This document shows, in pieces, positions 2,347 to 64,000 of a stretch of DNA of 64,000 nucleotides (its first letter is position 1; every line of letters begins with the position of its first letter). The DNA lies in the NCBI GenBank assembly GCA_963725515.1, contig CAVRZB010000008.1, forward strand, positions 137,791-201,790. Reading direction: 5' to 3'. The notes under the pieces are model-generated. The model saw only the letters and a program-made list of their open reading frames with translations, did no database searches and was not told where the DNA came from. This stretch comes from an uncultured Solirubrobacteraceae bacterium. Lineage in GTDB: Bacteria > Actinomycetota > Thermoleophilia > Solirubrobacterales > Solirubrobacteraceae. Made by a program: the position numbers and the translations under genes.

Positions 2347-3422
2347 GCCCCGGCCTCGGTCAGCCGGGCGCGAAGCTCCGGCTCGACGCGGATCCTCTCG
2401 AGCGCGTCGACGGCCGCCTCGGCGTGGCCGGCCTGGATCATCAGCGCGCATTCACCGGCGGCGGCCCGTACGCCCCCGACGTCGGTGGCCACGATCGGCA
2501 GCCGGGCGGCGAAGGCCTCGAAGAGCACCTGGGGCAGCCCCTCGGTCCACGACACGTGCAGCAGGGCGTGGCTCGAGCGGTAGATGTCCTGCAACCCCTG
2601 GTCGTGGGGGACGTATCCGAGCAGCTCGGCGTGGGCCTCGACACCCAGTTCGGCGAGGCGCCGGCGAAGCGCCTCCTCCAGCGGCCCCTCGCCGCAGATG
2701 AGCAGGCGCCATTGGTCGCTACGGCGACGCAATGCGGCCAGGATGTCGGCCAGCAACAGTGGGTTCTTCTCCTCCTCCAGCCGGCCGACGCTGAGCACGC
2801 GCAGCTCACCGGCGTCATAGGAGCGGGTGGTGGCGAGCGATGCGGGGACGATGTCCTGTTCGCGCACGAGTGAGACGGAGAGCACGAGTGTCCGCGCGGG
2901 GCGATACCCCTGGGCCAGCGCGGGTCCGACCACAACGACGGGAACGAAGCGGCCCATCAGGCGCCAGGCGCCCTCGAGCAGGTCGGCGATCCCGTGCGTC
3001 CAGCGACGGTCGGGGTTACGCGCCCGCACATAGCGCGGGAAGTCCTGGCGCACCCCGAGCGCCACGCTCCGGCCACGCGCGAAGGCCAGCAGCGCGAAGG
3101 CGACACCCAGTGGGTGGGGCCCCATCAGCCAGACTCCGTCCACCTCGCCGAGCACGCGCCAGAAGGTGGCCAGCGAGCGAGCCATGCCGCGAAGTGCCTC
3201 GGACGGGCGCGTCAGGCTGCGGTAGTAGGGCAGCGCGACGAAGCCGGTCGTCTCGGGCAGGGCGTAGCGGGCCGGACCGGGGTCCGGGTCAACCTTGCCG
3301 AGGATCACCACCCGCTCGAGCTCGTCGCCGAGCTTGGCCAGGAAGAGCGCAAAGGCCCGTTCGGCGTATATCCGCCCCGCCACTCGTCGGTAGGTGTAGT
3401 CGGTGTAGACGGCGAGCCGCAT
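2271..3422 (-). CDS. Glycosyltransferase family 4 (GT-B)
   Basis: VLSVGRLEEEKNP, TEGLPQVLFEAFAARLPIVATDVGG. Start MRLAVYTD lies 2 nt after the stop of the upstream GT2. Confidence 0.85.
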   Translation of the reverse strand: MRLAVYTDYTYRRVAGRIYAERAFALFLAKLGDELERVVILGKVDPDPGPARYALPETTGFVALPYYRSLTRPSEALRGMARSLATFWRVLGEVDGVWLMGPHPLGVAFALLAFARGRSVALGVRQDFPRYVRARNPDRRWTHGIADLLEGAWRLMGRFVPVVVVGPALAQGYRPARTLVLSVSLVREQDIVPASLATTRSYDAGELRVLSVGRLEEEKNPLLLADILAALRRRSDQWRLLICGEGPLEEALRRRLAELGVEAHAELLGYVPHDQGLQDIYRSSHALLHVSWTEGLPQVLFEAFAARLPIVATDVGGVRAAAGECALMIQAGHAEAAVDALERIRVEPELRARLTEAGAQNVAERTLEAEARRVARFLARRSL

Positions 3423-3424
3423 GG

Positions 3425-4471
3425 TCAGCTCGCGTCCGCGCCGCCGCGGCGCCGCAGGCCGCGGCCGAGATGTGCCAGCCCGGCGAGCGGCGGACCGAAG
3501 CGCGCGCAGCCGATCAGGAACCCAACTCCGTAGCTCAGGTGCATCGTCGAGAAGACGAGCGGCAGCGCTGCGGCGTCCGCGCCGGCGCCCTCGCCCGCCG
3601 CGCGCGCACTCGCGGTGAGCAGGGTGACCGCGTACGCCGCGACCCCGGCGCGCGCTGTGCGGCGCAGCCCCCGGGACGGCGCCAGCACCGCGGCGGCGGC
3701 GCTCAGTGCCAGCGCGGGCGGCAAGACCTGCGAGCGGCGCAGGCTCTCGGGATGGCGCCCTGCCGTCTTGACCCGGTAGGTCCCGTAGCGCAGGTACTGG
3801 CGCGCGAGCGCCCCCAGGGTGTCGCGCGGGATATAGCTGGCCGCCATCTCGGGCAGGCACACGATCCGGCCGCCTTCGGCCCTGATGCGGGCGGCGAGCT
3901 CCATGTCCTGGTCGTTGACGAACTCCTCGTCCCAGCCGCCGTGGCGCTCGAGGAGGGAGCGCCGCCAGATGCCTGTGAAGCCGGTGTCGATCTCGTGCTC
4001 GCGCTCGAGCTCCCGCCGGAACCCGGCTCCCCCGGTACCGAACGAGGTGCTCAGCGCGAGCGCGACGCGACGCGACCCGGGACTCGCGCCGACGGCGATC
4101 TGGGCCCCGCTCACCGAGGCCACACCGCCGCGCCGGAGGCGCTGCACGCCGGCCGCGAGATAGCGCGACGGGTACACGGTGTGGGCATCCATGCGGGCCA
4201 CGAACTCCCCACGCGCCTCGGCCAGCCCGATATTCAGGGCATGTGGAGTCCGGCGCTGTGGGTTCTCGAACACCCGCACGCGCGGGTCATCGGCGGCAAG
4301 CTCGGCGAGGATCTGCGGGGTGGCGTCGGTCGATCCACCGTCCATGAACAGGAACTCGAGCGTGCCGTCGAACTCCTGGGCGAGCATCGCGTGCGCAGCC
4401 TCGCGCAGGTGCCGCTCCTCGTTGAGGACCGGGATCAGCACGCTCACGTCGACTCGGGTCAAGGTCCCCAT
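3425..4471 (-). CDS. Glycosyltransferase family 2 (ExoA-like)
   Basis: VSVLIPVLNEE, MDGGSTDAT, ARMDAH (DxH), WDEEFVNDQDMELAARIR, C-terminal TMs. Confidence 0.88.
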   Translation of the reverse strand: MGTLTRVDVSVLIPVLNEERHLREAAHAMLAQEFDGTLEFLFMDGGSTDATPQILAELAADDPRVRVFENPQRRTPHALNIGLAEARGEFVARMDAHTVYPSRYLAAGVQRLRRGGVASVSGAQIAVGASPGSRRVALALSTSFGTGGAGFRRELEREHEIDTGFTGIWRRSLLERHGGWDEEFVNDQDMELAARIRAEGGRIVCLPEMAASYIPRDTLGALARQYLRYGTYRVKTAGRHPESLRRSQVLPPALALSAAAAVLAPSRGLRRTARAGVAAYAVTLLTASARAAGEGAGADAAALPLVFSTMHLSYGVGFLIGCARFGPPLAGLAHLGRGLRRRGGADAS

Positions 4472-53487: not shown

Positions 53488-54393
53488 ATGAGCCTCACGC
53501 CACGCACCGCGGCTTGGGCCCGCTCCGGGGAGCGCGTGAGTGTGCTCGGTGGCCACGAGGTCTTCGTGACCACGCGCGAGGGAACGGCGCCGTGGCTCAT
53601 CCTGCTGCACGGTTTTCCCTCGAGCTCCTACGACTGGCGAGCACTGCTCGAGGAGCCCGCGCTCGATGGCCGCGGCGTGCTGGCCTTCGACTTCCTCGGC
53701 TTCGGCCTTTCCGACAAACCCGCCGGCCGGCCCTATTCGCTGATGCCCCAGGCCGACCTGGTCGAGGAGCTGGTCGCGCGCTACTGCGGTCCGGAGGTCT
53801 TCGTCGTCGCCCACGACATGGGCACCTCGGTGGCCAGCGAGCTCTTCGCGCGCGACGTCGAGGGTCGCGGGCGGATCGCGATCTCGCGCGCGCTGCTGTT
53901 CAACGGCAGCATGCTGCTGCATCTCGCCAACCCGACGATCGGCCAGCGTCTGCTGCGCAGCCCAGCCGGTCCGTTCCTGGCCCGCGTGAGCACGGAGCGG
54001 TTCTTTCGCCAGCAGCTCGGGTCCGTCTTCTCGCCCGGCCATCCGCTGAGCGCCGAGGAGGCCGCCGATCAGTGGTCGCTCGTCACCGAGCGGGGCGGCC
54101 ACCGGCGGGCGCACGAGCTGATCGCCTACATGGACGAGCGCATCAAGTACGCCGAGCGCTGGCACGGCGCGATCCGCGACTGGAACGGTGAGCTCTCGCT
54201 GATGTGGGGCCTGCTCGACCCGGTCGCGCGGGTGGAGGTGCTGCGCGGCCTGCAGGAGCTTCGCCCCGGGGTCTCGGTCACAGAGCTGCCCGACCTCGGT
54301 CACTACCCGCAGCTCGAGGACCCCGCCCGCGTGGCCCAGGTGGTGGCCTCGACCTTCCCGGCGGCCGGCGCGCGCGTACCCTCCACGCCATGA
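53488..54393 (+). CDS. Alpha/beta hydrolase (MEST-like)
   Basis: LLHGFPSSSYDW, DFLGFGLSDKP, VAHDMG, GHYPQLE. Confidence 0.88.
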   Translation: MSLTPRTAAWARSGERVSVLGGHEVFVTTREGTAPWLILLHGFPSSSYDWRALLEEPALDGRGVLAFDFLGFGLSDKPAGRPYSLMPQADLVEELVARYCGPEVFVVAHDMGTSVASELFARDVEGRGRIAISRALLFNGSMLLHLANPTIGQRLLRSPAGPFLARVSTERFFRQQLGSVFSPGHPLSAEEAADQWSLVTERGGHRRAHELIAYMDERIKYAERWHGAIRDWNGELSLMWGLLDPVARVEVLRGLQELRPGVSVTELPDLGHYPQLEDPARVAQVVASTFPAAGARVPSTP

Positions 54394-55819
54394 GCCCGCA
54401 AGCCTGGTCGGAGTTGCTGCGCGAGCAGCGCGACCGGCCATGGCTCGGACTGGCCGTAGCCGGCGTCGCGGTCGCGCTGGCCACCGCCCTCATCTACCCG
54501 CTCAAGCATGTGGCGCCCGTCGTCTCGCTGAGCGTCGTGTACCTGCCCGCCGTGCTGCTCGTCTCGGCTCTGTGGGGACTCATCGACGGGCTCGTGACCG
54601 CGCTGGCCAGCGCAGCAGCGTTCAATTTCTTTCACCTCCCGCCCGTCGGGCAGTTCACGATCGCCGACAGCCGCAACTGGGTCGCGCTGGGGGCCTTCGT
54701 CGCGGCGGCGGTGGTGGTCAGCGGCGTGGCCGAGCTGGCCCGCAGCGGCGCGGTGCAGGCCGACCGGCGGCGCGGTGAGGCCGACCTCACCGCCGCGCTG
54801 GCCCGCGAGCTGCTGTCCGGATCCGGGACGCGCGATGCGCTCGGGGCGACCGCGCGCCGCGTGGCCGAGGCCCTCGGCCTGGCCTCGGCGTCGATCGAGC
54901 TCGGGGCCGCCGCCGCGGACGAACGCCGGCGGGCCGTTCCGCTGCGAGACGCCGACGGCCGCCAGATCGCCACGCTGCTCGTGCCGCACGACCTTCGCGG
55001 CGATACCAGCGAGCGCCTGCGCACCCGGCTGGCGCCGGCGCTCGGGGCGCTCGTGGCGATCGCCCTGCGGCGCGACGCCCTGCAGGCCGAGGCCGTGGAG
55101 ACCGCGGCCCTGCGACGCAGCGACGATGTCAAGACCGCCCTGCTGCGGGCTGTCTCACACGATCTGCGCACCCCCCTGACGGCGATCGTGGCCGCAGGCC
55201 ACGCGCTCGGGACGCAGTCGCTCACCGCCACCGAGCGGGTGGAGCTCAGCGCCGGCGTGGTCGAGGAGGCCGAGCGCCTCTCGCGGCTCGTCGAGAAGCT
55301 GCTCGATCTCTCCGTGCTCCAGGCCGGCCGCGCGTCCCCGCATCGCGACTGGGTATCGATCGAGGATGTCGTGCTCGCGGCGCGCGAGGGCCTCAGCGAC
55401 CCCGCCGCCGACGTCCGCGTGTCGATCGATCCGGACCTTCCCCCGGTGCGGGCCGACGCCGCGCAGCTCGAGCGCGCGTTCGCCAACCTGCTCGAGAACG
55501 CCCGCAGCTACTCGGGCGGGCTGCCCGTGTCGGTCGTCGCGCACCGCAGCGGCCAACGCGTCGTCGTGCGGGTCGTCGATCAGGGCCCGGGAGTCAAGCC
55601 CGCCGAGCGCGCCCGGATCTTCGAGCCCTTCTATCGCGGTCCCCAGGAGGGCCGCGGGCCATGGACGGGCTCGGGTCTGGGTCTGGCCATCGTGCGCGGC
55701 TTCGTCGAGGCCAACGGCGGGACGATCGCCGTCGACTCGCTGCCGGGGCAGGGCACGAGCTTCGTCATCTCGCTACCAATCGAGGCTGTGCCGTCCGAGC
55801 CGTCCCCCGAGGTGCGCGC

Positions 55820-55823
<4 letters not shown>
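54390..55823 (+). CDS. kdpD: KdpD-type sensor kinase, membrane + kinase part only
   Basis: DUF4118-like 4 TMs (FNFFHLPP..FTI), VSHDLRTPL, NLLENA, VVDQGPG, FEPFYRG, GSGLGLAI. Confidence 0.82.
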
Positions 55824-56503
<680 letters not shown>

Positions 56504-56597
56504 CCCGCAGCCGAGCGAAACCGCCCGCTCCGGCGGCCGAGGCCTCGCTAGGATCCTCGGCGGTGAGCCGGGAAGCCTGGTCGGCACATCCTTCGAC

Positions 56598-57944
56598 GTG
56601 CGCGAGGCTGATTTGCTCAACCGACTACGCGAGGTAAGGCCGCTCTCGTCCTGGCGACGCGAGACGCTTCGCACCAACCTGTGGCTTGTACCGACCGTCG
56701 AGGTGCTGCTGGCCACAGCGCTGTTCGCCGCGACCTACGCGCTGGACCGTGCCGCCTACCGCGGCACGATCAGCTTTCCGAACTGGATCTACGGCGGCAC
56801 CGCCGACGGCAGCCGGCAGGTCCTCACGGGGCTCGCGGCCGCGGTGATCACGGTCATCGGGCTCGTGTTCTCGATCACGATCGTCACCCTGACGCTGGCC
56901 TCCACGCAGTTCGGCCCGCGCATGCTGCGCAACTTCATTCGCGACCGGGTGACCCAGCTGACGCTGGGTACGTTCGTCGCCACCTTCGCCTACGCCGTGC
57001 TGACCCTGATCTCCATCAGCCCGGGACCACATGGCGATTTCATACCGCACCTGTCGATCACGATCTCACTCGTGCTGGTCGCGGTGGACCTCGCGGTGCT
57101 GATCGTGTTCATCGATCACATCGCCAAGTCGATCCAGCTGCCGCAGGTGATCGCCAGCATCGCCGGCGACCTCTCGCGCGCCATCGACGACTCGAACTCG
57201 GCGCCCGACCCCGTCGAGCTGCGGGCCGGCCCATCGATCTCCGAGATGCTGGGACGCCTCGACGAGTCGGGCGACCTCGTGCGGGCCCGGGCCAGCGGAT
57301 ACCTGCAGTTCGTGCGGCTCGACACGCTGCTCGGGATCGCGTCCCGCACACACGCCGTGATTCGGCTTCTGCACCGCCCGGGGCACTTCGTCAGCGAAGG
57401 ACAGCCGCTGGCCATCGTCTGGCCTGCGCAGGCGGCGCCCAAGGTGGCCCAGGCGCTGGACCGCGCTCACGCCACCGGTCCGCACCGAACGCTCGCTCAG
57501 GACGTGTCGTTTGCCGTCGACCAACTCGTCGAGATCGCGATTCGCGCCCTGTCGCCGGCGGTCAACGACACCTTCACCGCGCTGACCTGCATCGACTGGC
57601 TGGGCGACGGGCTGGGCAAGGTCTTCGCCCAATGGGATCCGGTCACGGCACATCGCGACCGCCGCGGCAACCTGCTCGTGATCACGGTGGCGGTCAGCGA
57701 CCGGCGGCTGGTCGAACGGGCCTTCGAGAAGATCCGCCAGGCCTCGCACGGGATGCCGGCCGTGATGATCCGCCAGCTCGAAGCGCTGCGCATGGTTATG
57801 AGCTCCTGTACCAACGACGCCCAGCGCGACGTCCTGATGGAACAGGCCGCGATGATCCTGCACGCCAGCCAGGTCTCGGTTTCCGAGGATCGAGATCGCG
57901 CCGACATCCTGCGACGCTATGAGGCACTCGTGGCCGCGCGCTGA
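56598..57944 (+). CDS. DUF2254 family membrane protein
   Basis: LTLASTQFGPRMLRNF, SGYLQ, QDVSFAVDQLVEIAIRALSPAVNDTFTA. Confidence 0.85.
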   Translation: MREADLLNRLREVRPLSSWRRETLRTNLWLVPTVEVLLATALFAATYALDRAAYRGTISFPNWIYGGTADGSRQVLTGLAAAVITVIGLVFSITIVTLTLASTQFGPRMLRNFIRDRVTQLTLGTFVATFAYAVLTLISISPGPHGDFIPHLSITISLVLVAVDLAVLIVFIDHIAKSIQLPQVIASIAGDLSRAIDDSNSAPDPVELRAGPSISEMLGRLDESGDLVRARASGYLQFVRLDTLLGIASRTHAVIRLLHRPGHFVSEGQPLAIVWPAQAAPKVAQALDRAHATGPHRTLAQDVSFAVDQLVEIAIRALSPAVNDTFTALTCIDWLGDGLGKVFAQWDPVTAHRDRRGNLLVITVAVSDRRLVERAFEKIRQASHGMPAVMIRQLEALRMVMSSCTNDAQRDVLMEQAAMILHASQVSVSEDRDRADILRRYEALVAAR

Positions 57945-57968
57945 GGGTCTGGCTTCTCGGAGGCCGCC

Positions 57969-58033
57969 TTCACACGATCTTGACGGCGGACCGTCGAACC
58001 TTCACCGGCCCTTGACACCGGCGGACCTACGCT
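57969..58033 (+). promoter_or_regulatory. Promoter module 1: four direct-repeat half-sites plus -10
   Basis: TTCAC 57969, TTGAC 57980, TTCAC 58001, TTGAC 58012, TACGCT 58028. Confidence 0.7.
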
Positions 58034-58039
58034 CGGCTT

Positions 58040-58564
58040 GTGACGTGGCGCCTGCGTATGCGTGTTCGCCTCACCCGCGGAGTCCTCGACCGGCAGCTCG
58101 CCCGAGGCGTGAGCGCCGATCGTTCACCGGCATTGGCACTGCGGGCAGATCAGCTCAGAAGCCCCGAGGTTCGTAGGACGATCGCCCGGCTGCTCGGCAC
58201 GATCGTGCAAGCCGCCGAGGAACGGAACGCCGACCCGAGCTCGCCCCTGATCGTCAACCACCCGGCGGTGCGCGATGCCAGTGCGGAGATCCAGGCGCTG
58301 ATCGGCCGCCTGCGCAGCACCGCCACGCTCGATCCGTCCGGGATCGCGCTGGCGCGGCTGCTCGTCCGAGACTCGAGGAGCCCAATGTTCTCCGCCGCCT
58401 CGGACCGCCGGCTGCGCGACGCGCTGGCGGAGATCGCCGGGCAGCTTGCGCCAGTCCATCGCGCCGGCGCGCCATGGGATGCCTCCTCCCCGTCCTCTTC
58501 ACGGAATCTTGACGGCGGCGCCCGCTATCTGCACGTGGCCTTTACGGACCCGCGCCTACCGTGA
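58040..58564 (+). CDS. Uncharacterised protein, paralog A
   Basis: GTG 6 nt after the -10 (leaderless); aligns by eye with 58599-59120. Confidence 0.65.
   Translation: MTWRLRMRVRLTRGVLDRQLARGVSADRSPALALRADQLRSPEVRRTIARLLGTIVQAAEERNADPSSPLIVNHPAVRDASAEIQALIGRLRSTATLDPSGIALARLLVRDSRSPMFSAASDRRLRDALAEIAGQLAPVHRAGAPWDASSPSSSRNLDGGARYLHVAFTDPRLP
58498..58562 (+). promoter_or_regulatory. Promoter module 2
   Basis: TTCAC 58498, TTGAC 58509, TGCAC 58530, TTTAC 58541, TACCGT 58557. Confidence 0.7.
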
Positions 58565-58598
58565 GAACAGTCCGGAATGCCAGACAGGACCGGTCTCG

Positions 58599-59120
58599 AT
58601 GACGATCAAGCCCTTGACTGTTAAGACCCCGCGGCGCAGCTCGGATCGGACCGAGCTGAGCGTCCCGAAGCCGCGCCTGCGACTTCGCCTGCGCGTGGGG
58701 TTCTCCCGCTTCCGCCTCGACCGTGAGCTGGCCGCAGGTCAGCCCGCCGGCGCCTCGAAGGAGCTGGCCCTGCGGGCCAGGCAGCTGACCGAACTCCCGG
58801 CGCGGCGCAGGCTCGCGAGCTCATTGAGGCACACGGTCGCGGACGCACAGCGACCGAATCCACCCGGCTTCAGCTCGGCCGTGCCGATGCGGCGCGATGC
58901 CGTGCGGAGCTGCGGCGAGGCGATGCTCGGCCTGGCCGACCGCCTCGAGCAGGAGCCTCCGCTGAGCGCGAGCGCCGTGGCGCGCGTGCTCGTGCTCCTC
59001 AGCGACGGTACCGGTCCGCTGTACAACGCCGGTTGCCCGCGTTCGCTGGGCGACGCGGTCTGGGCGGTTGTGGACGCCGAGCAGGGGTCCCACGACGTCG
59101 CCGCTCGCGCCGCCGACTGA
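58599..59120 (+). CDS. Uncharacterised protein, paralog B
   Basis: LDRELAAG...LALRARQL...AVR...L.DG.GPLY, homologous to paralog A; AGGA SD. Confidence 0.65.
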   Translation: MTIKPLTVKTPRRSSDRTELSVPKPRLRLRLRVGFSRFRLDRELAAGQPAGASKELALRARQLTELPARRRLASSLRHTVADAQRPNPPGFSSAVPMRRDAVRSCGEAMLGLADRLEQEPPLSASAVARVLVLLSDGTGPLYNAGCPRSLGDAVWAVVDAEQGSHDVAARAAD

Positions 59121-59155
59121 CCGCCGTCGCCCTGCGCCTCGCCGAGATGCACCTC

Positions 59156-59220
59156 TTCACAACATCTTCATGCCGCGCGCCGCTTTCTGCACGCGGTCTT
59201 GACTGGACAGCGGCCAGGAT
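59156..59220 (+). promoter_or_regulatory. Promoter module 3 (kdp operon promoter)
   Basis: TTCAC 59156, TTCAT 59167, TGCAC 59188, TTGAC 59199, CAGGAT 59215. Confidence 0.7.
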
Positions 59221-59226
59221 GCCCTC

Positions 59227-59307
59227 ATGGACTTCGTAGCCGTACTACTCGCGCTGGTGACGTTCGCCGTGCTCATCGGCCTGATCTACGGGATCGATCG
59301 GATATGA
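59227..59307 (+). CDS. 26-aa hydrophobic peptide upstream of kdpF
   Basis: Own translation MDFVAVLLALVTFAVLIGLIYGIDRI. ATG 6 nt after the -10; ATGA-coupled to kdpF. Confidence 0.65.
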   Translation: MDFVAVLLALVTFAVLIGLIYGIDRI

Positions 59308-59414
59308 GCCTGGTGCTCGCCAGCATGAGCGGCGCCGACGTCTTCGGACTCGTGGCCTCCGTGATCGTGTGCATCTACTTGCTGTACGCGCTGTTGCGCG
59401 GGGAGAAGTTCTAG
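59304..59414 (+). CDS. kdpF: K+-transporting ATPase subunit F
   Basis: ...IYLLYALLRGEKF C-terminus. An internal ATG at 59325 would give 29 aa. Confidence 0.85.
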   Translation: MSLVLASMSGADVFGLVASVIVCIYLLYALLRGEKF

Positions 59415-59418
59415 CGCC

Positions 59419-61191
59419 ATGACCTTCCTCGGCTGGCTGACGATCTTCCTGTTCGCGGGCATCCTGACGGCGTTCGCGATCCCGCTCGGCTCCTACATGG
59501 CTGCCGTGTATACGGGCGAGCGCACGTTCCTGGATCCGCTGTTCCGCGGCCCGGAGCGGCTGCTCTACAGAGTCATGCGGGTCGATCCGGACAAGGGACA
59601 GGATTGGAAGGCCTACGCCAAGTGCGTGATCTTCTTCTCGCTCGCGGGCTGGCTGCTGCTGTATTTCATTCTGCGCACGCAGACGCTGTGGAACTGGACG
59701 GGACTGAACCCGCAGCACTTCCACTCGGCGCCGTGGAACGTGACGTTCAACACGACCTCGTCGTTCGTGACGAACACGAACTGGCAGTACTACGGCGGGG
59801 AGACGACGATGAGCTACTTCAGCCAGATGGCCGGGCTGACAGTGCAGAACTTCGTCTCCGCCGCGGTCGGGATCTCGGTGGCGATCGCGGTGATACGGGG
59901 GATCATCGGCCGCAGCGGCAAGAGCCTCGGCAACTTCTGGCAGGACCTCGTGCGCACCGTGCTGTGGGTTTTGTTGCCGATTTCGTTCTTGGTCGCCCTG
60001 GTACTCGTCTTCCAGGGCTCGATCCAGAACTTCTCGCACTACCTGAACGTCAACGGCCCGACGGGGCTCGCCAACCAGATCGCGCAGGGCCCCGTTGCCT
60101 CACAGGAGGCGATCAAAGAGCTCGGGACCAACGGCGGCGGCTTCTTCAACACGAACTCCGCTCATCCGTTCGAGAACCCGAGCGGGTTCACGAATCTTGT
60201 CGAGATGCTGGCGGTGCTGATCATCCCCGCAGCGCTCGTCTTCTGCTACGGGAAGATGGCTGGCAAGCGCCGCCAAGGCTACGCGATCTACGCGACGATG
60301 ATGATCATGTTCCTCGGCGCGGCGATCGTCGCCTTCATCGCCGAGGCGCACGGGTCCCCTGCGCAGCATGCCGCCGGCCTTCACACCGGCGTGATCTCCG
60401 GTTCTGGCGGGGGCAACATGGAGGGCAAGGAGCAGCGCTTCGGGATCGCCGGCTCAGCCCTGTTCGACGTCGTCACGACGGTCACCTCTTGTGGCGCGGT
60501 AAACAGCGCGATCGAATCGTTCACGGGGATCGGCGGCGCGATCCCGATGGCGAACCTGTCGGCCAGCGAGGTGATCTTCGGCGGCGTCGGCACGGGCCTG
60601 TACTCGATCCTCTTGTACGTGCTGCTGGCGGTCTTCCTCGGCGGCCTAATGGTCGGCCGCACCCCGGAGTACCTGGGTAAGAAGATCGAGGCGCGCGAGA
60701 TCAAGCTCGTCGTGCTCGGTCTCTTGATCACGCCGCTGGCGGCGCTGTTCGCGACTTCGTTGGCGACTGCAAGCAAGGCCGGGCGAGCTTCGATCTCCGC
60801 CGCGGCCAGCGGTAGTCCACAGGGCTTTTCTGAGACCATCTACGCTTACCTCTCCCAAGCGAACAACAACGGTTCTGCGTTCGCGGGCTACACGGGCTTC
60901 ATCCAGCCCAACGCCGGCAACGTCGGCTCGCACGGGATCACGTTCGCCGACCTGCTCGGCGGTTTGACGATGCTGTTCGCTCGCTTTGCGCCGATTCTGT
61001 TCGCGCTCGCGGTCGCCGGCGCACTGGCCGGCAAGCGCGTCAGTCCCGCCGGCCTCGGCACGATGCGTACGGACAACCCGACGTTCGTCGTGCTGCTGAT
61101 CGGCGTGATCGTGCTCGTCGGCGCGCTCACCTTCTTCCCCGCCCTGCTGCTCGGACCGATCGTCCAGGGCCTGACCGGACACCTCTACTGA
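59419..61191 (+). CDS. kdpA: K+-transporting ATPase subunit A
   Basis: SFVTNTNWQYYGGE, IKELGTNGGGFF, MEGKEQRFG, GLMVGRTPEYLGKKIE, ANNNGSAF. Confidence 0.97.
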   Translation: MTFLGWLTIFLFAGILTAFAIPLGSYMAAVYTGERTFLDPLFRGPERLLYRVMRVDPDKGQDWKAYAKCVIFFSLAGWLLLYFILRTQTLWNWTGLNPQHFHSAPWNVTFNTTSSFVTNTNWQYYGGETTMSYFSQMAGLTVQNFVSAAVGISVAIAVIRGIIGRSGKSLGNFWQDLVRTVLWVLLPISFLVALVLVFQGSIQNFSHYLNVNGPTGLANQIAQGPVASQEAIKELGTNGGGFFNTNSAHPFENPSGFTNLVEMLAVLIIPAALVFCYGKMAGKRRQGYAIYATMMIMFLGAAIVAFIAEAHGSPAQHAAGLHTGVISGSGGGNMEGKEQRFGIAGSALFDVVTTVTSCGAVNSAIESFTGIGGAIPMANLSASEVIFGGVGTGLYSILLYVLLAVFLGGLMVGRTPEYLGKKIEAREIKLVVLGLLITPLAALFATSLATASKAGRASISAAASGSPQGFSETIYAYLSQANNNGSAFAGYTGFIQPNAGNVGSHGITFADLLGGLTMLFARFAPILFALAVAGALAGKRVSPAGLGTMRTDNPTFVVLLIGVIVLVGALTFFPALLLGPIVQGLTGHLY

Positions 61192-61192
61192 C

Positions 61193-61851
61193 ATGAGACG
61201 CGACATCATCACCTCCGCGCTCGGCATCGTCGTGTTGACGCTGCTGCTCGGAATCTTCTACCCGCTCGTCATCACGGGCGTCAGCCAGGTCGCCTTCCCG
61301 GGCAACGCCAACGGCCAGCAGATCAAGCTGAACGGCAAGCTCGTGGGCTCCAAGATCATCGGCCAGAACTTCGCCGAGCAGGTGGTCAAGAACGGCAAGC
61401 CGCAGGTCGACAAGAGCGGCAACCCGGTGACCACGCCGGATCCTAGGTACTTCCAGAGCCGCCCGTCGGCGACCGTCCCCCCGAACAACGCCGCCGCAAC
61501 CACGTTCTCGAACCTCGGGCCCAACAACAAGGCGACCGAGCAGGCGATCGCGGCCAACATCCAGTCCTACATCGCGCTCGAGAAGCCCTACGTCCCTGGG
61601 CTCACCGCGGCGACCGTCCCGGTCGACGCCGCCGACACCTCGGCCTCGGGGATCGACCCAGATATCTCGCAGGCCAACGCCTGGATACAGGCCCACCGGA
61701 TCGCGGCCGTCCGGCGTCTGCCGTTGGCTCGGGTGAATCAGCTCATCGCGCAGTACACCCACGATCGCGGGATCGGATTCTCCGGTGAGCCCGGGGTCAA
61801 CGTGCTCCAGCTGAACCTCACCCTCGACCGCCTGAGCGCCGGAGGCCGCTG

Positions 61852-61852
<1 letters not shown>
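61193..61852 (+). CDS. kdpC: K+-transporting ATPase subunit C
   Basis: [47 protein letters not shown]. Confidence 0.95.
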
Positions 61853-63954
<2,102 letters not shown>

Positions 63955-64000
63955 TGGCGGCGAGCGGGTCGCGAGCGCGATCATGGCTGTGGTGACTGAC

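Follow-up and report, generated by a model that had tools for sequence, protein, structure and literature searches.

What controls the genes around the kdp operon in Solirubrobacterales, and does this control reach beyond the Kdp pump? The question is raised by a 64,000-nt stretch of DNA from an uncultured Solirubrobacteraceae bacterium (contig CAVRZB010000008.1, positions 137,791 to 201,790; the whole stretch is called the window below), in which a promoter-like module of four half-sites stands three times shortly before the kdp genes. A preliminary description of this DNA had read the module as a binding box for the response regulator KdpE and had predicted a local regulon extending beyond kdpFABC. 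The analysis presented here leads to the same answer: each module is probably an activator-dependent promoter of the KdpD/KdpE K+-starvation circuit, that is, of the known KdpD/KdpE switch in a lineage-specific, multi-promoter form. We infer binding and activation, the K+ response and the starts of transcription from the sequence.

Three copies of a four-half-site module

The pattern TKCAC-N6-TTNAY-N16-TKCAC-N6-TTNAY has three exact matches in the 64-kb window, at 57969, 58498 and 59156, all on the + strand, and none of 100 dinucleotide shuffles contains a match. Three identically spaced modules had been described at these positions, with half-sites at offsets 0, 11, 32 and 43 and a -10-like hexamer at 59, and both the sequence read and the pattern search bear out all five offsets in all three modules. 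Alignment of the modules shows that the conserved unit begins one base before the start first assigned to it and that the four half-sites read CTTCAC, CTT(G/C/T)A(C/T), CT(G/T)CA(C/T) and CTT(G/T)AC. Module 1 (57968..58016, +; TTCACacgatcTTGAC-N16-TTCACcggcccTTGAC from 57969) consists of CTTCAC (57968-73), CTTGAC (57979-84), CTTCAC (58000-05) and CTTGAC (58011-16), followed by the -10-like hexamer TACGCT at +59 (58028..58033) and by GTG at +71 (58040), the start codon of a gene called X1 here (58040..58564). Module 2 (58497..58545, +; TTCAC..TTGAC-N16-TGCAC..TTTAC from 58498) consists of CTTCAC (58497-02), CTTGAC (58508-13), CTGCAC (58529-34) and CTTTAC (58540-45), with TACCGT at +59 (58557..58562). 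Module 3 (59155..59203, +; TTCAC..TTCAT-N16-TGCAC..TTGAC from 59156) consists of CTTCAC (59155-60), CTTCAT (59166-71), CTGCAC (59187-92) and CTTGAC (59198-03), with CAGGAT at +59 (59215..59220) and ATG at +71 (59227), and it stands directly before an operon of a 26-aa peptide and kdpFACB. The start codons at offset 71 in modules 1 and 3 are thus as previously described. In module 2, no start codon is present at +71, and the X1 paralogue X2 (58599..59120) begins with its in-frame ATG at 58599, ~30 nt beyond. Transcription is predicted to start at GTG 58040 for module 1, giving a leaderless mRNA, near 58569 for module 2, giving a ~30-nt leader with AGGA before the X2 ATG, and at ATG 59227 for module 3. 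Module 2 and its -10 (58497-58564) lie within the X1 reading frame, at its 3' end, and overlap its last ~22 codons, which gives X1 a C-terminal tail of ~22 aa that the other family members are without.

A 51-column position weight matrix was built from 114 modules found in the genome scan described below. The window modules score 52 (module 1), 60 (module 2) and 67 bits (module 3, the closest fit to the lineage consensus), compared with -22 bits for the next best site in the window and a maximum of 2.4 in shuffled sequence. No isolated half-site pair in the window scores over the shuffled maximum by this matrix, which argues that the predicted regulon inside the window comprises only these three promoters. 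For the same reason, an autoregulatory site before the hydrolase-kinase-regulator operon of the window and a site before its DUF2254 gene were dropped as candidates. An RNA element or riboswitch was also dropped, because a search for RNA families in Rfam gave nothing relevant between 54 and 64 kb.

The module is conserved in relatives that were chosen by protein homology and not by motif. Four contigs encoding the closest X1 homologues (L001 to L004; 59-84% identity to X1; loci from other genomes are given by such numbers) hold modules at the orthologous positions. Among these relatives, 2/24, 2/24 and 4/24 half-site columns vary for modules 1, 2 and 3, while variation affects 19 of 20 upstream flank columns of modules 1 and 3 and as many as 12 of 15 columns of the spacer between the pairs (12/15 for module 1). 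The upstream flank of module 2, which is X1 coding sequence, varies in 8 of 20 columns. The half-sites are kept amid diverging flanks, a clean phylogenetic footprint. The GTG of module 1 is retained at its offset in all four relatives. Module 2 is conserved in L001, L002 and L004 and is absent in L003, where X1 and X2 overlap. The distant X homologues in L005 and L006 adjoin kdpA, DUF2254 or KdpD-N, and no module was found with them.

Known KdpE sites and the regulator encoded upstream

The geometry of the module can be compared directly with that of the E. coli kdpFABC promoter. There, KdpE binds two direct repeats of 6 bp, TTTATA (S1) and TTTACA (S2), with 5 bp between them; the half-site is TTTA(T/C)A, in which the two leading T do not vary across genera, and the footprint extends from -72 to -50 (PMC3264566). 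In the promoter of strain MG1655 (L128, 728822-728950, minus strand), counted from the first T of S1, S2 lies at 11, TTTGCG at 32, TTTGCA at 43 and TACCCT at 59, so that all five offsets equal those of the module. Like module 3, the E. coli site is upstream of kdpF, with 59 bp from the first half-site to the -10 in both. We know of no report that treats the E. coli TTTGCG and TTTGCA at 32 and 43 as KdpE sites. Read in the E. coli register, the hexamers of the module are TTCACR, TTGAYG, TKCAYG and TTGACG, i.e., TTNAYR, and both promoters have direct repeats with an 11-bp period. The 11-bp repeats, which had been described as typical of the OmpR/PhoB family, therefore fit the E. coli KdpE site TTTA(T/C)A-N5-TTTA(T/C)A at an equal distance to the -10 (PMC3264566). 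The two systems also differ. The half-sites of the module are richer in GC (CTTCAC, CTTGAY), its proximal and distal pairs are equally well conserved whereas the proximal pair of E. coli is not footprinted, and the transcripts are predicted to be leaderless whereas the E. coli leader is ~28 nt. In addition, KdpD is split into separate genes here, and there are three or more promoters per locus as well as targets other than kdp, whereas KdpE of E. coli has been described as having a single target (PMC5934670).

A second known site comes from the same phylum. The minimal KdpE site in PkdpF of M. smegmatis is the 22-bp CCGTAAAGAAACCATCAAGGCC, in which its authors saw no similarity to other KdpE motifs (PMC5401905). 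Its reverse complement, GGCCTTGATGGTTTCTTTACGG, contains CTTGAT-N5-CTTTAC, so that both the half-site and the period match modules 1-3 on the reverse strand. Only one pair has been mapped there, together with a 120-nt 5' untranslated region and a proposed SigF-type promoter (PMC5401905), and the published strand may be inverted with respect to kdpF. The module is also reminiscent of the pho boxes of PhoB in class II promoters, that of E. coli pstS among them, where tandem 11-bp repeats replace the -35 at ~10 bp from the -10 and several dimers can occupy one promoter. The PhoB half-site, however, is TGTCAT, and its boxes are contiguous (0/11/22/33), whereas 10 extra bp separate the pairs here; the targets here are K+ uptake genes and not phosphate genes.

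The candidate regulator is encoded nearby, as the preliminary description had pointed out. A 227-aa OmpR-family response regulator (55820..56503, +) ends 1466 bp upstream of module 1. KdpE is its best NCBIfam match, at 199 bits, which is under the equivalog cut-off of 325. The named PDB chain that matches it best is E. coli KdpE (4KNY; E 6e-54; MtrA, 8e-45), and an unnamed chain, 6lgq_D (E 4.9e-54), aligns with the same residues. In alignment with E. coli KdpE (PDB 4KNY/4KFC), the recognition helix VLRAHIANLRRK retains the equivalents of the contact residues R193, R200 and T215, the first of which has been described as KdpE-specific (PMC3264566). The helix sequence LRAHIANLRRK is nearly invariant across ~50 Solirubrobacterales loci.

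The histidine kinase gene beside it (54390..55823, +; start placed according to 477-aa relatives, longest open reading frame (ORF) from 54204) contains only DUF4118, HisKA and HATPase_c; KdpD-N (PF02702) and Usp domains are absent. Stand-alone KdpD-N genes (PF02702, 374-390 aa) and stand-alone Usp genes follow kdpB in a locus of Conexibacter sp. DBS9H8 (L033, 5479-7119) and in L065 (5908-7655), and a PF02702 match after kdpB is also present in the close relative L002 (after ~11800); the window counterpart of this region lies past base 64000. The window kinase is thus the putative C-terminal half of a split KdpD. KdpD appears to be split over three genes in this lineage, with the DUF4118-HisKA-HATPase kinase encoded together with kdpE. 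As relatives encode KdpD-N and Usp separately, behind kdpB, the kinase and the regulator encoded upstream are predicted to form the kdp two-component system. Cyanobacteria have a short KdpD. In the D. radiodurans kdp operon, the N-terminal sensor domain is encoded apart from the kinase core and beside kdpB, as in the relatives here (PMC5716572). In contrast to other split KdpD systems, Usp is also a separate gene here, the kinase and KdpE are encoded upstream of the kdp operon, and the promoter module stands directly behind kdpE in many species.

Genes behind the module

A motif search in relatives, which the preliminary description had proposed, was carried out on 185,579 species genomes with the pattern CTTCAC-N5-CTTNAY-N15-CTKNAY-N5-CTTNAY and gave at least 119 loci, of which most of those listed belong to Solirubrobacterales, Solirubrobacteraceae, Conexibacter or unclassified Actinomycetota. 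The module is present in at least ~90 loci of Solirubrobacterales and allied Actinomycetota. Target genes were assigned by tblastn with the window proteins and by Pfam searches for 116 modules listed in high-GC loci. The module is followed by the kdp operon in 54 of these, by an X-family gene in 18, by Kup (PF02705 and PF22776) in 15, by an APC permease with a Usp domain in 7, by a KimA-like permease in 1 and by a P-type cation ATPase in 1. A small 91-aa ORF follows in 2, with kdpA next in one of the two loci; the gene is lost at a contig end in 5 and is unclassified in 13, mostly from other classes. Altogether, 98 of the 116 listed modules lie upstream of kdp, Kup, an APC-Usp or KimA-like permease, a cation ATPase or the X family. 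No phosphate gene was found behind the module among the classified listed targets, so that the location expected of a PHO box is not seen. In at least ~30 loci, a kdpE-like gene lies upstream of the module with its end less than 100 bp away, and in more loci the distance is within 3 kb.

Columns outside the half-sites are conserved as well. A purine follows half-site 1 in all 114 listed modules that were aligned, although this column is free in the pattern; half-site 2 is preceded by A and T in 98 and 104 of the 114; and G follows half-sites 2, 3 and 4 in 97, 93 and 83, respectively. The -10 hexamer has A at position 2 in 100/114 and T at position 6 in 97/114. In 82/114, an ORF of 24 codons or more has its start codon at pattern offset 71-75, mostly at 72 or 73, which fits leaderless mRNAs that would start ~7 nt past the -10. 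The prediction of a KdpE box for this lineage is upheld by the E. coli geometry, the M. smegmatis half-site and the recurrence before kdp, typically directly behind a kdpE-like gene, in dozens of species of Solirubrobacterales. The predicted regulon beyond kdpFABC is likewise supported, as the X-family modules are conserved in relatives and the module precedes Kup, APC-Usp and KimA-like genes elsewhere.

Several arrangements and variants of the module were seen in the scan. The order kdpE - Kup1 - module - Kup2 - module - kdp occurs in many species (L011, L020, L029, L035, L058, L104, L107 and L127), and the module precedes only the second of the tandem Kup paralogues. Variant modules outside the exact pattern are present at L068 3123-3171, L011 7124, L058 5976 and L107 7907. 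The one in L068 is upstream of a kinase-regulator operon, which may mean autoregulation there, and the second half-site is CTGTAT in the kdp promoters of L011, L058 and L107. In Acidimicrobiia/Ilumatobacteraceae-type loci, the 0/11/32/43 layout is inverted, with four copies of GTGAAG (L075 5280-5328, L092 926-974, L119 3593-3641 and L120 5616-5664), and these inverted modules sit 85-170 bp upstream of a small peptide-kdpF-kdpA operon. This suggests that KdpE boxes could work in either orientation if placed further upstream; the inverted modules may share the orientation of the published M. smegmatis site. Outside Actinomycetota, the four-site pattern is found next to kdp or kdpDE-like genes in L041 (Synergistaceae, 3406-3454), L009 (Bacilli, 264-312) and L027 (Gemmatimonadetes, 1814-1862); L041 and L009 also have a hexamer, TATCAT or TATCCT, at the same offset (60). 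No kdp context surrounds the matches in low-GC genomes (among them cyanobacteria and tandem repeats of Bacteroidota), and these were treated as chance matches or sites of other regulators.

The genes of the window locus are all on the + strand. A hydrolase gene (53488-54393) precedes the kinase and regulator genes, and a gene for a DUF2254 membrane protein (56598..57944) lies between kdpE and module 1. The DUF2254 gene has no module before it and has its own TAGGAT upstream. The sequence TAGGAT-N7-GGTGAGCCGGGAAGCCTGGTCGGCA is conserved directly upstream of DUF2254 in all relatives (window 56540-56590; L001 ~3780-3830; L003; L004; L005 ~3270-3320; L026), and the similar GGTGCTCGGAAGCCTGGCAGCGGC is upstream of the X gene in L005 and L006. 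This leader has no match in Rfam, and its folding is not better than that of shuffled sequences; possible roles are those of a protein-binding site or a short leader element. The kdp operon consists of the hydrophobic 26-aa peptide MDFVAVLLALVTFAVLIGLIYGIDRI (59227..59307) as its first cistron, kdpF (59304-59414, Pfam Potass_KdpF), which the peptide overlaps in ATGA, kdpA (59419-61191, Pfam KdpA), kdpC (61193-61852, Pfam KdpC) and kdpB (61852-63954, Pfam E1-E2_ATPase). The order F-A-C-B, with kdpC between kdpA and kdpB, differs from the F-A-B-C of E. coli and is lineage-wide, being found in nearly all kdp loci that were fetched. A solo kdpA paralogue (577 aa, ~56% identity to the operon KdpA), without its own kdpB or kdpC, lies between X2 and the kdp promoter in L001 (6400-8133), L003 (7046-8779) and L025 (3352-5040) and is not in the window.

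X1 (174 aa) and X2 (173 aa; 36% identity to X1, E 2e-14) belong to a family of unknown function and match nothing in Pfam or NCBIfam. Only 19 relatives of X1 are found among 5.8 billion proteins. A 23-member alignment of the family gave a confident, all-helical model (pLDDT 85.7, pTM 0.75), for which Foldseek found no PDB neighbour (best E 0.6). X genes stand behind the module in diverse species (L030, L050, L054, L072, L094, L102, L105, L108 and L125), and because of this repeated placement the X proteins are predicted to be true regulon members. In at least 26 Solirubrobacterales loci, the 26-aa peptide is encoded at offset 72-73 as the first cistron after the module, and it is apparently a leaderless cistron of the kdp operon. 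Its consensus is MD[IVF]VAV.LG..MFA.L..LI.GIDRI (window, L012, L015, L016, L020, L023, L025, L026, L033 and others). In another type of kdp operon, the place of this peptide is taken by one of 34-41 aa that contains the motif SILDSLQDVSS.

Proposed mechanism and its alternatives

We propose that the membrane kinase, as the C-terminal half of a split KdpD, would phosphorylate the KdpE-like regulator encoded 1.5 kb upstream, and that two head-to-tail KdpE dimers would bind the two direct-repeat pairs. With the first base of the start codon as 0, the distal pair would be bound from -72 and -61 and the proximal pair from -40 and -29, and the position of the distal pair coincides with the E. coli KdpE footprint. 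The pairs are 32 bp apart, or about three helical turns, so both dimers would lie on one face of the DNA. The dimers would recruit RNA polymerase to a promoter with a -10 (nAnnnT) but without a correctly spaced -35. Transcription would start ~7 nt past the -10. In modules 1 and 3 this position falls on the first base of the start codon, and leaderless mRNAs are accordingly predicted; the module 2 transcript would carry its ~30-nt leader before X2. The three promoters would drive X1, X2 and the peptide-kdpFACB operon, and the local KdpE regulon would thus consist of the Kdp pump and two paralogous soluble helical proteins. The predicted features of the lineage are the conserved second pair, the leaderless starts, a multi-promoter K+-uptake regulon and the split KdpD.

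A number of points weigh against assigning the module to KdpE. The regulator scores below the NCBIfam KdpE cut-off. The invariance of the half-sites in the scan set is partly built in, as the scan required them. The pattern also matches unrelated low-GC genomes, so that sequence alone cannot name the regulator, and half-sites of the OmpR/PhoB family resemble one another, those of Streptomyces PhoP being an example. The E. coli footprint covers the distal pair only, which makes KdpE on the proximal pair an extrapolation. Finally, for this lineage we infer binding, expression and transcription starts from sequence comparison.

The role of the proximal pair is where the proposed mechanism is most readily read otherwise: the distal pair (0, 11) alone could be the KdpE site, with the proximal pair (32, 43) serving as a core-promoter element or as the site of another factor, e.g., with CTTGAC as a -35-like hexamer. 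The restriction of the E. coli footprint to -72 to -50 (PMC3264566) would agree with this, as would the deviation of the E. coli hexamers at 32 and 43 (TTTGCG, TTTGCA) from TTTAYA and the resemblance of the fourth half-site, CTTGAC, to TTGACA. However, the distance from the fourth hexamer to the -10 is just 10-11 bp, too short for a sigma-70-type -35/-10 promoter, so that CTTGAC is not a normally spaced -35; with no conserved hexamer 17 bp downstream either, the fourth half-site was dropped as a true -35. Moreover, the third hexamer is as strongly conserved as the others and lies 11 bp before the fourth, and all four share CTTNAY followed by a purine. We therefore consider a distal-only KdpE site unlikely.

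It is very unlikely that a different OmpR/PhoB-family regulator, such as a phosphate regulator of the PhoP/PhoB type, binds the module and that the proximity of kdpE is coincidental. Many members of this family share an 11-bp period and a TTCAC-like core, and the pattern also matches cyanobacterial and other genomes without kdp context. The PHO-box unit of Streptomyces PhoP, GTTCACC, belongs to a similar 11-nt repeat. The repeats bound by M. tuberculosis PhoP are 7 bp long and separated by a 4-bp spacer (PMC4832192). Nevertheless, every classifiable target in the lineage among the matches listed is a K+/cation uptake or kdp-linked gene and none is a phosphate gene, the module stands directly behind a kdpE-like gene in at least ~30 species, its geometry is identical to that of the KdpE-dependent E. 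coli promoter, and its half-site is shared by the KdpE site of M. smegmatis (PMC5401905). The three copies could also be remnants of a tandem duplication of gene and promoter (X1/X2) that no longer share regulation, as X1 and X2 are paralogous, module 2 is absent in L003, and modules 1 and 2 have the 13-nt stretch ATCTTGACGGCGG in common. Yet the half-sites, the -10 and the distance to the start codon are kept while spacers and flanks diverge, and the same module stands before unrelated genes (kdp, Kup, APC-Usp) in many species. This footprint and the recurrence before unrelated genes rule out inert remnants, and we regard the duplication explanation as highly improbable.

A promoter activated by KdpE thus remains our preferred explanation of each module. 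A wider claim, which we put forward tentatively and with more doubt than confidence, is that 0/11/32/43 with a -10 at 59 is an ancient, cross-phylum layout of KdpE promoters, in which a second dimer replaces the -35 and which ties all K+ importers (Kdp, Kup, APC-Usp) and the X proteins into one regulon in Solirubrobacterales. If this is true, the layout would have been missed in E. coli, where TTTGCG and TTTGCA occupy these positions, and hidden in M. smegmatis by the choice of strand, and the X proteins would be new players in K+ starvation, e.g., modulators of the pump or of the split KdpD. The present analysis supplies a well-supported candidate KdpE box and promoter model for Solirubrobacterales, a large and mostly uncultured soil lineage, and joins KdpE sites that have been held unrelated in the literature, the T-rich site of E. 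coli and the A-rich site of M. smegmatis. It predicts that KdpE of this lineage controls several K+ importers and not one, together with the X1/X2 family and the conserved 26-aa leaderless peptide. X1/X2 and the 26-aa peptide are candidates for new parts of bacterial K+ homeostasis.

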